From assembly GCA_030390025.1 (NCBI GenBank), contig CM059432.1, positions 124,001 through 188,000 on the forward strand: a stretch of 64,000 nt of DNA. The letters run 5' to 3'. The DNA is from Squalus acanthias (Eukaryota). Positions 1 through 64,000 of the stretch are shown piece after piece (position 1 is the first letter of the stretch; each line of letters begins with the position of its first letter). A model generated the notes under the pieces. That model made no database searches. It had not been told where the DNA came from and was given only the letters and a program-made list of their open reading frames with translations. Made by a program: the position numbers and the translations under genes.

Positions 1-1167
1 TCCCACACAAGAGGTTGGTGAACAAAATTAGGGCACATGGAATTGGGGGTAATATAATAGCATAGATTGAGAATTGGTTAACAGATAGAAAACAAAGAGT
101 AGGGATAAACGAGTCTTTTTCAGGATGACAGGCTGTGACTTGTGGGGTACCGCAAGGATCAGTGCTTGGGCCCCAGCTATTCACAATCTATATCAATCAT
201 TTGGATGAGGGGACTAAATGTAACATTTCCAAATTTGCTGATGATACAAAGCTAGGTGGCAGTGTCAGTTGCGAAGAGGATGTGAAGAGGCTTCAAGGGG
301 ATCTCGACAGGTTCAGTGAGTGGGCGAGAACATGGCAGATGGAATATAATGTGGATAACTGTGAAGTTATCCACTTTGGTAGAAAAAACAGAAAGGCAGA
401 GTATTTCCTAAATGGTGAAAGATTGGGGAATGCAGATGCTCAAAGGGACCTGGGTGTCCTTGTACATGAGTCATTGAAAGTGAATGTGCAGGTGCAGCAA
501 ACCATTAGGAAGGCAAATGGTATGCTGGCCTTCATTACAAGAGAATTTGAGTACAGGAGTAAAGAAGTCTTACTCCAATTATATAGGGCCTTGGTGAGAC
601 CACACCTGAAGTACAATGTACAATTTTGGTCTCCTTACCTAAGGAAGTATATACTAACCATAGAGGGAGTGCAACGAAGGTTCACGAGATTGATTCCTGG
701 GATGGCGGGACTGTCGTATGAGAAGAGATTGAGTAAACTAGGCCTTTATTCTCTTGAATTCAGAAGAATGAGAGGGGATCTCATTGAAGCATACAAAATT
801 ATTACAGGGCTTGATAGGGTGGATGCTGGGAGAATGTTTCGCTTGGCTGGGAGTCTAGAACCAGGGGCCACAGCCTTAGGATAAAGGGTAGGCCATTCAG
901 GACTGAGATGAGAAGAAATGTCTTCACACAGAGGGTGGTGAATCTTTGGAATTCTCTACCCCAGAGGGCTGTGGAGGCTCAGTCATTGGGTATATTCAAA
1001 ACAGACGTCGATAGATTTCTGACTAGTAAGGGCATCAAGGGATATGGCGATAGGGCCGCTGAATGGAGTTGAGGCAGAAGATCAGCCATGATCTCATTGA
1101 ATGGCGGAGCAGGCTCGAAGGGCCGAATGGCCGACTCCTGCTCCTATTTTTCTATGTTTCTATGTTT
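1..1167 (+). mobile_element. CR1 LINE 3' part (RT C-terminal half and 3' tail)
   Basis: ORF 135-884 has GVPQGSVLGP and KFADD RT motifs. It ends in the CR1 tail AATGGCGGAGCAGGCTCGAAGGGCCGAATGG followed by (TTCTATGT)n. Near-identical to 28224-29225, so it is the end of the previous duplication unit. Confidence 0.93.
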
Positions 1168-1387
1168 TAATGATACTTCCCTTAAACAAGAGTTCCTGAC
1201 CGACCTGTTCTTCAATCCTTTCAGGAGTTTTATGAAGAGTCACTTATTTCTTTGCAGAAGCATCTCTCATAGAGAATACTCAGACATTTGGAGCAGAAGA
1301 TAAGACATGCTTTCCCTGCCGCACCCCCGCTGCTATCCTGTTCACCTCGGAAAGCCAGTTGCTCCGAGCCACAAGGAAGTTCGATTA

Positions 1388-1524
1388 TTAAGAACATAAG
1401 AATTAGGAGCAGGAGTCGGCCATTCGGCCCCTCGAGCCTGCTCCGCCATTTAATGAGATCATAGCTGATCTTTGACCTCAACTCCACTTTCCCGCCTGAT
1501 CTCCATATCCCTTTGATTCCCTTA
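1388..1524 (-). mobile_element. CR1 3' tail fragment
   Basis: Reverse complement of the CR1 tail stem-loop and terminal repeat (AAGAACATAAGAA). Confidence 0.85.
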
Positions 1525-2537
1525 GGGGCCAAAATTCGGTTGGTTGGCGCCTCGTGTTAGAGCCTCTGGGGGGCGCTAACAGGGCGCTAGGAACTAAGGG
1601 TAAAAATTCACTTGGTTGCGCCTCCCGTTAGCGCCTTAAGAGGGCGCTAATGGGGCGCAAAGCCGCTAACGCCCGTGCGCAGCGATGTTTGTGCCGCTCG
1701 AGAACTTAACTTGAGATTGTGCGGCGGCGCTAAAACTTACCGCTGCGACCACCTGCGCGCGCAGATTGTGACGTCATTCCATGGTGCAACGCCCTTGGGG
1801 CGCCCCGTAGCGGAAATTGAGTGGCGCCCCCTGCCTTACCGCCTGGCGCTTCCAACGACCAGAAGACTGGAACGCTATCAATCGCTGTGGGGCTGGGGGG
1901 GGCGCTATTTAAAGGGGGCCTCTTCCGGTCTTTTATTGTTGGTGGCATTTTTGAACTACGCATTCTGAGAGAGAGAGGGAGAGACTTCTGGAGAGATTCA
2001 ACGTTGTGTGAAGGAGTTTTGGGTACTGAGCAGCACTTTGCAGGTTCATTTTGATTTGCCATTCCTTGTATCGATTTAGCAGAGAATGTGGGAGCTGCAC
2101 TCTGAGCTCCTTGCCTGGTACTCTCCATTGTTCTTTCCAGCACATTTGATGTGCAAGTCTCTCCAGGCCGAGATTCAAGGCTGCAATGAACAGGATGTGG
2201 ATGGAAAGCAAGATTAACCATCCCCTTTAAGAACTGGCCCGTGCCATTGTGTGTGTGTTCCATTGCTGACTGACATTACATGAGCTTCGCCAGCGCTCCG
2301 AGTTAGCGCCTCACTCCTTGGCCTTTGCGCCTTAAGAGAGGTGTGCAGCGCCTGCTTTAGCGCTCCACTCACCTCCCGGGACGGTAAAAGTGAAGTTTCC
2401 TGTCAGTGCCGATAATTAGCGCCAGGCGCTAATATTTGCGTCCGGACGATATTTGCGCCCCAAATGGGGCGCGACCTAATTTCTACCCCTTAGTGCCTGA
2501 CCACGGTGATTTTAGCCCCATTCGCGAAATTGACCAA
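1525..2537. mobile_element. Fragment of a related MITE ('B' subfamily), interrupted by the 893-bp MITE
   Basis: TTA|GGGGCCAAAATTCGGTTGGTTGGCGCC at 1525 resembles the MITE terminus. It resumes at 2490 (TTAGTGCCTGACCACGGTGATTTTAGC), which matches 60214. Confidence 0.6.
1597..2489 (-). mobile_element. 893-bp non-autonomous DNA transposon (MITE, PIF/Harbinger-like), copy 1
   Basis: Reverse complement of 17578-18470. Termini are (A)GGGTAAAAATT...AATTTCTACCCC, with flanks CTA/TTA. Confidence 0.85.
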
Positions 2538-2765
2538 CTGATTCACTCATGTCCCTTTAGGGAAGGAAACCTGCCGTCCTTACCCGGTCTGGTCCTATAG
2601 GTGACTCCAGTCCCACACTAACCTGGTTGACCCTGAACTGCCCCATGAAGTAGCCCAGCGAGACACTCAGTTGTATCAGACCTGCTATTGGGGAACTGGG
2701 GATGGGCAAAAAACGTCGGCCTTGCCAGCGACGCCCACATCCCGAGAATGAATAAATAAATAGAA
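2537..2765 (+). mobile_element. 3' half of a tRNA-derived SINE (family unassigned)
   Basis: Matches the 3' half of the SINE at 44971-45392 and ends GAATGAATAAATAAA. Paralogous copies lie at ~29755-30022 and ~62825-63092. Confidence 0.7.
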
Positions 2766-61519: not shown

Positions 61520-62303
61520 TCTCTCATCATAGGACAGCCCTCTCATCCCAGGAATCAATCTAGTGAACCTTCGTTGCACCGCCTCCAAGGCAAGTATATC
61601 CTTCCTCAGATAAGGAGACCAAAACTGTGCACAGTACTCCAGGTGTGGTCTCACCAAGGCCCTGTACAATTGTAGCAAGACTTCCTTATTCTTATTCTCC
61701 AACCCCCTTGCAATAAAGGCCAACATGCCATTTGCTTGCTGTACCTGCATGCTAACTTTCTGTGTTTCCTGTACGAGGACACCCAGATCTCTCTGAGCAC
61801 CAACATTGAACAGTTTCTCACCCTTTTAAAAAAGATTCAGTTTTTCTATTCGTCCTAACAAAGTGAATAACCTCGCATTGATTAGTAACCCTTAACTCTC
61901 CAGGATGTCCAACAGGGATTCTCTACGCCAGTCTCCCCGCCTCCCCCACCCCCCACTTTCGCAGCAGGTGGGCCACAGAAGCTTGCCACCCATTTCCCCC
62001 TCACTTCCGCCTCACTTTCATGAAGTCTTAATCGTGCCCGTATAAAGCTGGCCTCTGGGTTGCTAGACACTGCTCCGAAGGTGGAAGAAATCTAAGGGGA
62101 AAATCTCTCAGACGCCTCCTTTCTCGGGTGACAGGCTCAAGTCTCATAACTCAGAACCCTGACACCAGGGATTAGCATCGAGATTCTTCTCTACAGAGTA
62201 AGATATTGGACAGGAGGTGAATCCTGAAGTACGGTAGCCTTGTGGTGATGTTACTGGACTAATAATCCACAGGACATGAGTTCAAACCCCACCGTGGTTC
62301 TTA

Positions 62304-62822
62304 AACATAAGAACCTAAGAAATAGGAGCAGGAGTCGGCCATTCGGTCCCTCGAGCCTGCTCCGTCATTCAATAAGATCATGGCTGATCATTGACCTCAT
62401 CTCCACTTTCCTGCACTATCCCCATATCCCTTGATTCCCTTAATATTCCAAAATCTATCGATCTCTGTCTTGAATATACTCAACGACTGAGCCTCCACAG
62501 TCCTCTGGGGTAGAGAATTCCAAAGATTCACCACCCTCTGAGTGAAGAAATGTCTCCTCATCTCAGTCCTAAATGGCCGACCCTTTATTCTGAGACTGTG
62601 ACCCCTGGTTCTAGACTCCCCGGCCAAGGGAAACATCCTCCCTGCATCTATCCTGTAAGAATTTTGTATGTTTCAATGAGATCACCTCTCATTCTTCTAA
62701 ACTCCAGAGAATATAGGCCCAGTCTGCTCAATCTGTCCTCATAGGACAATCTCCCCATCCCAGGAACCAGTCTGGTGAACCTTCTTTGCACGCCCTCTAT
62801 GGCAAGTATATCCTTCCTTAGG
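62304..62822 (-). mobile_element. CR1 3' fragment (paralog of 29235-29752)
   Basis: ORF 62397-62636 plus tail. Confidence 0.9.
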
Positions 62823-63774
62823 TAAACATGACCAAGAAGCTGTCAGATTGTCGTAAAAGCCCAACTGGTTCACTCATGTCCCTTTAGGGAAGGAAACCTG
62901 CCGTCCTTACCCGGTCTGGGCCTATAGGTGACTCCAGTCCCACACTAACCTGCTTGACCCTGAACTGCCCCATGAAGTAGCCCAGCGAGACACTCAGTTG
63001 TATCAGACCTGCTATTGGGGAACTGGTGATGGGCAAAAGACGTCGGCCTTGCCAGCGACGCCCACATCCCGAGAATGAATAAATAAATAGAAAGTGCTTG
63101 AGAGCGAGTTGAGAGGAATTGTGAATGACAAAAGGAAAATGTTAAATCACAACAGAAAATGCTGGGAACACTCAGCAGGTCAGGCAGCATCGAGGAGAGA
63201 GAGAAACAGAGTCAACGTTTCCAGTCGGGGAACCTTCGTCAGAAGGAAAATGTTAGTTTGGCTAAAGGAAGACAAAGCATCAGGAGCTGATGGGATTAAT
63301 CCTGGGATCCTGAGGGAGATTGAGGAGATAATTGGAGATTATATTACTGGGTCTACTGAGTGTGGATGTGTGCCCGAGGACTGGAGAGTGATCAATGTAT
63401 TACATAGAATGTACAGCACAGAAAGAGGCCATCGGCCCAACTGGTCCGTGCCGGTGTTTCTGTTCCACACGAGCCTCCGCCCACCCCTCTTCATCTCACC
63501 CCATCACCATATCCTTCTATTCCTTTCTCCCTCAAGTGTTTATCTAGCCTCCTATTAAATGCATCTTTACTATTCGCCTCAACCACTCCCTGTGGAAGCG
63601 AGTTCCACATTCTCACCACTCTGTGGGTAAAGAAGTTTCTCCTGAATTCCCTATTGGATTTATTAGTGACTATCTTATATTGAATGGCTCCTAGTTCTGG
63701 TCTCTCTCAACAAGTTGAAACATCTTCTCTACATCTACCCCATCAAACCCTTTCAAAACGTTAAAGACCTCGAT

Positions 63775-63924
63775 CAGGAGTGAAGGTGAAGAGAGTCAGT
63801 GAACTGAGGAGTGAGAATCAGGCAGCTAAATGTTTAAATCTCATTGGTTGGCTGCCTCATGAGCTCATATTTGGGTTGGAACCTCATGCTCTGGAAAGGC
63901 GGAGGGACGAGGAGGCGAAACATA
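63775..63924 (+). promoter_or_regulatory. Upstream/promoter region of a probable third actin-like copy
   Basis: Near-identical to 3447-3596, including the ATTGG box. Interrupted at 63925. Confidence 0.65.
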
Positions 63925-64000
63925 ACATAAGATCATAAGAAGTAGGAGCAGGAGTCGGCCATACGACCCCTCGGGCCTGCTCCGCCATTCAATAGGATCA
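63925..64000 (-). mobile_element. CR1 3' tail running off the window
   Basis: ACATAAGATCATAAGAAGTAGGAGCAGGAGTCGGCC is the reverse complement of the CR1 tail. Confidence 0.85.

Follow-up and report, generated by a model that had tools for sequence, protein, structure and literature searches.

A tandem array of remodelled one-intron actin genes near the start of a chromosome contig in the shark Squalus acanthias

The actins of vertebrates are regarded as a small set of genes, dispersed and nearly invariant. What are the divergent actin genes that stand in tandem near the start of a contig of the shark Squalus acanthias, and are they still maintained as proteins? We analyzed a window of 64,000 nucleotides (nt) of assembly GCA_030390025.1 (contig CM059432.1, here C8; C8:124001-188000), near the start of this 154-megabase (Mb) contig in a 3.7-gigabase (Gb) genome. 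Three groups of genes on C8 are distinguished below: D, the copies of the divergent array; F, an adjoining cluster; and G, a cluster at 35.2 Mb. From the sequence, we lean towards the reading that an old, remodelled actin paralog has recently been amplified in tandem, two of its units lying in the window, and that it would evolve by birth-and-death under weak constraint. Its copies would still need an open frame, would likely be translated now or until recently, and are predicted to bind nucleotide and to be poor at polymerizing and at engaging myosin.

The D array comprised eight units of 14-36 kilobases (kb) each in the first 528 kb of C8, starting at 35.5, 64.7, 101.1, 127.5, 154.9, 187.8, 201.6 and 227.4 kb (D1 to D8), and these units lay on the gap-free stretch C8 1-235,069. 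The genes of the window were D4 (unit length 27,392 bp) and D5 (32,936 bp), the fourth and fifth units. The start codons proposed for them in a preliminary description of the window (ATG at 3783 and 31175) held up; GT donors follow 3905 and 31297, AG acceptors precede 8302 and 46847, and each pair of exons joins into a 1119-nt open reading frame (ORF) of 372 amino acids with no stop; D4 and D5 differed at 56 of the 1119 nt and at 40 residues. The repeat block described at that stage was likewise present twice (14-mer, CT tract, 33-mer, then retroelement ORFs, in both units), and positions 1-1167 do belong to the tail of an earlier unit. A third upstream region had been said to end at 63924; a 562-bp repeat insertion splits it at this point, and it resumes to an intact exon 1, that of D6, at C8:188676, 676 bp beyond the window end. 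A complete ORF was present in six of the eight units. D6 had exon 1 only, and D8 had exon 1 followed by an assembly gap at C8:235,070. Start codon and donor were intact in 8/8 units and the acceptor in 6/6. A genome search found the D promoter and exon 1 at no other place in the assembly, match counts being lower bounds.

The F cluster contained six one-intron actins (F1-F6, C8:272964-486648, L052-L073) with proteins 98.4-100% identical to each other, and the G cluster contained four actin copies (C8:35.17-35.25 Mb, L078-L088). All 16 complete D, F and G genes had a single coding intron at codon 41/42, and the conventional cytoplasmic actins of this genome, on C18 and C24, had four coding introns. 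Tandem arrangement is not peculiar to the divergent genes, as near-invariant one-intron actins are also arrayed next door.

All six D proteins (residue numbers follow alpha-actin) carried MAAVR instead of an acidic N-terminus, had lost residue 5 and residues 200-202, and showed R39Q, H40E, P130S, T203S, M269L/I, E270D/G and C374R/S. Identity to a beta-actin (P0099) was 83.3-85.5% for D1, D4 and D5, and 95.5-96.5% for F1 and F3. The D proteins belonged to the actin family (PF00022 fold) by full-length likeness and by the P1/P2 nucleotide loops, with the exception of G156C in D4 and D7. Their best solved-structure matches were cytoplasmic actins (E ~1e-199), and 20 of 24 residues that we take to form the nucleotide site were unchanged in all six copies. 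Among 215 homologous proteins, the 200-204 loop could be scored in 206, and it was shorter in none of them. Protein searches gave weak negatives: no deletion carrier among the best 120 of 6225 matches to the deletion region, none more than 90% identical among the best 120 of 6908 matches to exon 2, and two unrelated matches among 10 candidates for exon 1. With no D-type protein among the matches listed, these searches weakly suggest that D is lineage-specific. An AlphaFold2 model of D exon 2 (19-row alignment) reached a predicted local distance difference test (pLDDT) score of 33 and was discarded.

The acidic N-terminus of actin serves myosin binding. A myosin role for this segment is also touched on in the accessible portion of PMC8291977. 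The available part of bioRxiv 10.1101/309534 names the filament contacts R39-E270, E270-T203, R39-D286 and T202/E205/D286, and R39, E270, T202 and T203 were altered or deleted in all six D copies.

The two exons of D differed in their relation to F. Exon 1 of D stood at a synonymous divergence (dS) of 0.60-0.77 from F, and exon 2 at one of 0.09-0.12; for D1/F1 the contrast had a Fisher p=3e-6. The likeness around exon 2 ended ~29-45 bp inside the intron and 27-32 bp inside the 3' untranslated region, while promoter and exon 1 aligned at 72-75%; the exon-2 tree joined D and F with a bootstrap of 100. Among exon-2 sites allowing synonymous change, 8 were variable in both D and F versus 2.2 expected (p=0.0006), with the same two bases at 7 of them; restricted to non-CpG sites, the shared variable sites numbered 3 versus 0.9 expected (p=0.047). 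Over 213 nt of exon 2, D5 was identical to F5, including two F5-specific bases. We read the shared variable sites, the D5/F5 identity and the dS contrast as exon 2 having been overwritten by gene conversion from F with exon 1 escaping, which would make D an old paralog. Among the D copies themselves, 207 of 1128 informative site pairs were incompatible, giving mosaic patterns indicative of recombination, and non-coding divergence between units was 3.1%. The amplification of D thus appears to be recent or homogenized.

Changes on the stem of D were compared with positions conserved among 10 divergent actin-like genes of this genome, which are not all independent of one another. In exon 1, stem changes spared the conserved positions, hitting 0 of 11 of these and 11 of the 24 variable ones (p=0.006). 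The stem also carried two deletions, of 3 and 9 bp, both in frame, and 230 of 251 non-coding indels were not multiples of 3.

Pairwise ratios of nonsynonymous to synonymous rates (dN/dS) were 0.49-1.43 among D copies and 0-0.11 among F copies. Exon-2 variants among the six D copies comprised 64 nonsynonymous and 22 synonymous changes (omega-like ratio 1.10, p=0.81). A codon model with one parameter fixed, which we take to mean omega=1, fitted D when compared with a free omega (2dlnL, twice the log-likelihood difference, 0.37) and was rejected for F (52). These values agree with the main rival explanation, that the D array is recently dead: a formerly functional paralog would have lost expression, been passively amplified in a repeat-rich unit and drifted neutrally, its ORFs open by chance. 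The same explanation is favored by the absence of exon 2 from two of the eight units and by substitutions in the D crown, which did not avoid deeply invariant sites (13 versus 15.6 expected, p=0.56). Its difficulty lies in the frames. There were 0 stops and 0 indels among the 86 exon-2 variants versus 4.5-6.5 disruptions expected from non-coding rates (probability of none, P0, 0.002-0.011), a count that covers the six complete copies and omits D6 and D8, the latter running into the assembly gap. The intact start codons and donors of all eight units and the intact acceptors of the six complete ones also speak against it, as do codons 43-140, where 10 nonsynonymous and 8 synonymous variants departed from omega=1 (2dlnL 5.5) in a partition picked after seeing the data. 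We regard a recently dead array as a serious but rather unlikely explanation.

Several other observations weigh against a maintained, remodelled actin. Crown substitutions were not clearly milder than random (p=0.086), and stem changes in exon 2, which include P130S and C374R/S, spared conserved sites non-significantly (3/105 versus 13/229, p=0.20). Enrichment at filament contacts was not significant (4 of 19 named contacts in the available part of bioRxiv 10.1101/309534 changed in all D, versus 31 of 374 positions overall, p=0.06), and that the changes are aimed at such contacts is suggestive only. D4 and D7 carried G156C and H73R, and D4 had G74R and W340L as well. All D had lost the TATA box that F1, G2 and G4 have, with TGGAAA at the aligned position; no AATAAA was found within 1.4 kb past the stop in three D copies examined for it; and insertions interrupted four of the eight promoters (one common to D2, D6 and D8, another in D3). 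These promoter and polyadenylation features also fit a recently dead array. The insertions were considered as a sign of selection and set aside, target-site preference being the simpler candidate reading. D4 and D7 lacked a 128-bp segment bearing a GC-box-like site. In favour of a maintained actin, the promoter columns common to six copies were the least variable (2/185 versus 5.7% elsewhere, p=0.0015), although this could stem from conversion and not from selection. In 12 listed sequencing runs, D5 exon 2 with its 3' flank had a share of at most 0.19, where F copies alone would give 0.09-0.13, and we used the value neither way. Expression of D, including in testis or germline, is a prediction from sequence.

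Diversifying selection on the D copies, in reproduction or as decoys against pathogen proteins that target actin, would be suggested by the variability of exon 2. Exon 2 varied at 85 of 996 sites (8.5%), versus 269 of 4737 non-coding sites (5.7%) common to the six copies (p=0.001), and the excess persisted at non-CpG sites (p=0.023) and for transversions (p=0.0025). As only 21 of 90 variable sites were CpG, CpG hypermutability was rejected as the sole cause. The non-coding rate would predict 43.5 nonsynonymous variants, and 64 were observed (p=0.002); codons 141-320 held 44 nonsynonymous and 9 synonymous ones, and R177 and E270, which we take to be sites targeted by pathogen proteins, were variable or changed in D. 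However, synonymous variants were raised about equally (22 versus 16.5 expected), and for 14 of the 15 pairs, 10% or more of the non-coding windows of 1 kb were as diverged as exon 2. Because exon 2 lies within this spread and its synonymous sites are raised too, its faster change than the flanks does not demonstrate positive selection. Omega>1 in codons 141-320 was not significant (2dlnL 2.7, again picked after seeing the data), nor was the clustering of variants (p=0.077), and exchange with F alone can raise exon-2 variation. Diversifying selection is, in our judgement, improbable. Even less credible is an assembly artefact that placed alleles or haplotigs in tandem. The array does stand at the end of a contig, runs up to a gap and abounds in repeats, with 80% of the window matching sequence from outside the D array. 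Against an artefact, it has eight units with 3.1% non-coding divergence and unit-specific insertions within a gap-free 235 kb, and no copies were found on other contigs (match counts again being lower bounds).

The preliminary description had proposed an amplified, fast-evolving subfamily under birth-and-death evolution. The tandem array, the loss of exon 2 from two of eight units and a dN/dS of ~1 in D against ~0.1 in F bear out this much, and adaptive change is not established, omega not exceeding 1. It had also raised the prospect of units collapsing to alleles or haplotigs, which the single gap-free contig, the divergence and the separate insertions rule against, and of mostly disrupted copies. 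None of the six complete copies was disrupted, though exon 2 was missing in two of eight units.

How does D compare with known actins? Like ACTB and ACTG1, D has an intron at codon 41/42 and the nucleotide motifs. Unlike them, it has one intron and not four (near codons 41, 121, 267, 327), lacks the acidic N-terminus and an intact 200-204 loop, has less than 95% identity and shows no strong purifying selection. By the 41/42 intron, shared splice flanks and promoter likeness, D falls with the one-intron F and G genes (type 5-like). A Heterodontus francisci protein, 'actin, cytoplasmic type 5-like' (XP_067887594.1, P0214), had 10 non-beta-actin residues and 2 N-terminal positions in common with G2 and G4, and the G group is therefore present in another shark too. 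Unlike D, this protein, compared by protein only, kept the acidic N-terminus and the full loop, and it was 79-82% identical to D.

D as ACTL7 or ACTRT was rejected, such intronless genes being separate loci. Nine of these actin-like genes (L017-L025, on C1, C2, C3, C5, C16, C19 and C919) were 45-65% identical to F3, and those on C1 and C19 formed tandem pairs; we presume the ACTL7/ACTRT-like names, and L022 and L025, each matching in two frames, may carry frameshifts. D as ACTBL2 by synteny was also rejected: genes of the family of GPBP1, which we take to be the neighbour of ACTBL2 in mammals, lay on C2 and C15, and the nearest genes found past the D array were RIOK3, RMC1 and NPC1 (148/689 and 149/542 candidate ORFs scanned). 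The amniote retrogene ACTBL2 is, like D, an intron-poor, faster-evolving beta-actin relative, but its coding sequence is intronless and D keeps a coding intron. The accessible part of PMC7870945 mentions sequences similar to ACTBL2 from cartilaginous fishes, and fish relatives that contain introns.

Also similar in kind are Arp53D and the obscura-group duplicates of Drosophila and ACTL7/ACTRT of mammals, described in the available portions of PMC8291977 and PMC7038667 as young paralogs of the actin fold that evolve fast and have an altered N-terminus. These germline actin-related proteins have demonstrated testis expression and positive selection, both of which would be conjecture for D; D is also much closer to actin, tandem and multi-copy, and still exchanging sequence with conserved actins. 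By analogy, D would work like a non-canonical actin-related duplicate of the Arp53D type. Stops, frameshifts or loss of all introns, the marks of a pseudogene, were found in 0 of 6 complete D copies.

Multi-copy actin clusters occur in sea urchin, ascidian and Dictyostelium, and like D these families show duplication, loss and gene conversion; unlike D, their functional copies are strongly purified and their divergent ones mostly broken, whereas all six divergent D copies are open. The same likeness and difference hold for the primate actin family, for which the accessible part of PMC3690210 describes birth-and-death evolution. Birth-and-death of actin genes is thus already known. In the full-text literature searched, which mostly excludes subscription journals, no shark actin array was described, the D array included.

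The history that we propose for a maintained paralog is as follows. D would have split long ago from the F lineage; exon 1 would have diverged past the reach of conversion under selection for the fold, and gene conversion with F would have patched exon 2. Unequal crossing-over between units rich in repeats would then have multiplied D, and redundancy would have relaxed selection on single residues with frame-breaking changes still purged. Restricted expression, for example in the germline, and a role as a monomer or filament modifier are predicted. More speculatively, and with considerable doubt on our part, D could represent a new vertebrate actin class in a shark lineage, nucleotide-binding and without the myosin-binding N-terminus and the pointed-end contact loop, that would act as a tissue-restricted filament cap, sponge or decoy, with exon 2 reshuffled by conversion into a variant repertoire.

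The features of the window are collected in the table. The names CR1, RTE and SINE (short interspersed nuclear element) for retroelement ORFs and fragments are our assumption from motifs.

Table. Features of the 64,000-nt window, in window positions.
Feature	Position	Strand	Details
CR1-type tail of preceding unit (D3)	1..1167	+	1-1008 95% identical to 28224-29228; D3 extends to C8:127505
D4 upstream region	2534..3782	+	labels by alignment with F1/G2/G4
D4 reversed CCAAT, putative	3515-3519	.	alignment with F1/G2/G4
D4 TGGAAA at TATA position	3564-3569	+	F1 has TATAAG there
D4 putative 5'UTR intron	3648-3772	+	branch-point-like ACTAAC at 3730-3735
D4 coding exon 1	3783..3905	+	41 codons; without acidic N-terminus; R39Q, H40E
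CR1-type insertion in D4 intron	4281..6926	-	not in D5; common to D2, D6, D7
D4 coding exon 2	8302..9297	+	331 codons + stop; 9-bp deletion of residues 200-202; H73R, G74R, G156C, R312Q, W340L, C374S
D4 spacer	10492..29228	.	14-mer ATTGG repeat 10492-10583, CT tract 11711-15815, 33-mer 20952-22120, RTE-/CR1-type fragments
D5 upstream region	29790..31174	+	128 bp at 30770-30897 with GC-box-like site, not in D4
D5 coding exon 1	31175..31297	+	122/123 nt same as D4
D5 intron	31298..46846	+	15,549 bp, repeat-filled, 33-mer array 43271-44867
D5 coding exon 2	46847..47842	+	first 213 nt = copy F5; R116Q, P333S, L349R, C374S
D5 spacer	49036..59321	.	14-mer repeat 49036-49314, CT tracts 50353-51268 + 52454-52956, 33-mer 52968-53144, RTE-/CR1-type fragments; order as in D4
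D6 upstream region	62861..63924	+	98% identical to that of D4
Start of 562-bp repeat insertion splitting D6 promoter	63925..64000	.	same insertion in D2, D8

A young 0.9-kb repeat family, with copies 98% identical and GGGGTA(A/G)AAATT-like inverted ends, occurred at window positions 1595-2492, 17575-18472, 19328-20220 and 59319-60260, and the D3 promoter contained a 744-bp element bounded by terminal inverted repeats of 18 bp (C8:101221-101965); both are likely non-autonomous DNA transposons. The orphan exon 1 of D6 (C8:188676-188798, L044) could serve as an alternative first exon for D7, whose exon 2 lay 17.6 kb downstream of it; the intron of D5 measures 15.5 kb. An endogenous retrovirus-like element with a zinc knuckle, protease, reverse transcriptase, two RNase H domains and integrase in separate frames preceded the array (C8:14.6-22.3 kb; L032:4639-10000 + L033:1-2330). 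Past the array, a histone H2A C-terminal match stood between RIOK3 and RMC1 (C8:543.3 kb, L102:5328-5528).

F3-F6 formed their own tandem array of ~9-kb units with identical proteins, ending at a gap; the assembly has a gap at C8:488,949. A 7.5-kb block upstream of F2 and F3 was repeated inverted and in tandem at 98% identity (C8:369-377 kb and 439-455 kb). In the G cluster, G2 and G4 were conserved, G3 had a stop and a 2-codon deletion, and G1 was intact and ~70% identical to the other G copies, which points to a second divergent lineage. A stop-free frame of 3135 codons on the minus strand, rich in Ser, Glu and Asp, lay at C8:35.282-35.291 Mb (L111:2093-10000 + L112:1-1497); it had no Pfam or PDB match, and one of its motifs may resemble NACAD. 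That one cluster had been split by an inversion into the 0.3-Mb and 35.2-Mb parts was unsupported, CtIP-family genes lying at C8:95.7 Mb and on C11.

This genome has no fewer than 16 additional complete coding sequences for one-intron actins (one with a stop), which stand in two clusters on one chromosome; six of them are of the remodelled class. If D is expressed, it would be a natural experiment on dispensable actin surfaces and a paralog that escapes gene conversion exon by exon. If it is silent, it would still illustrate clearly how birth-and-death proceeds in a family of cytoskeletal genes, and it would be a caution for actin annotation and for beta-actin controls of quantitative PCR in sharks.

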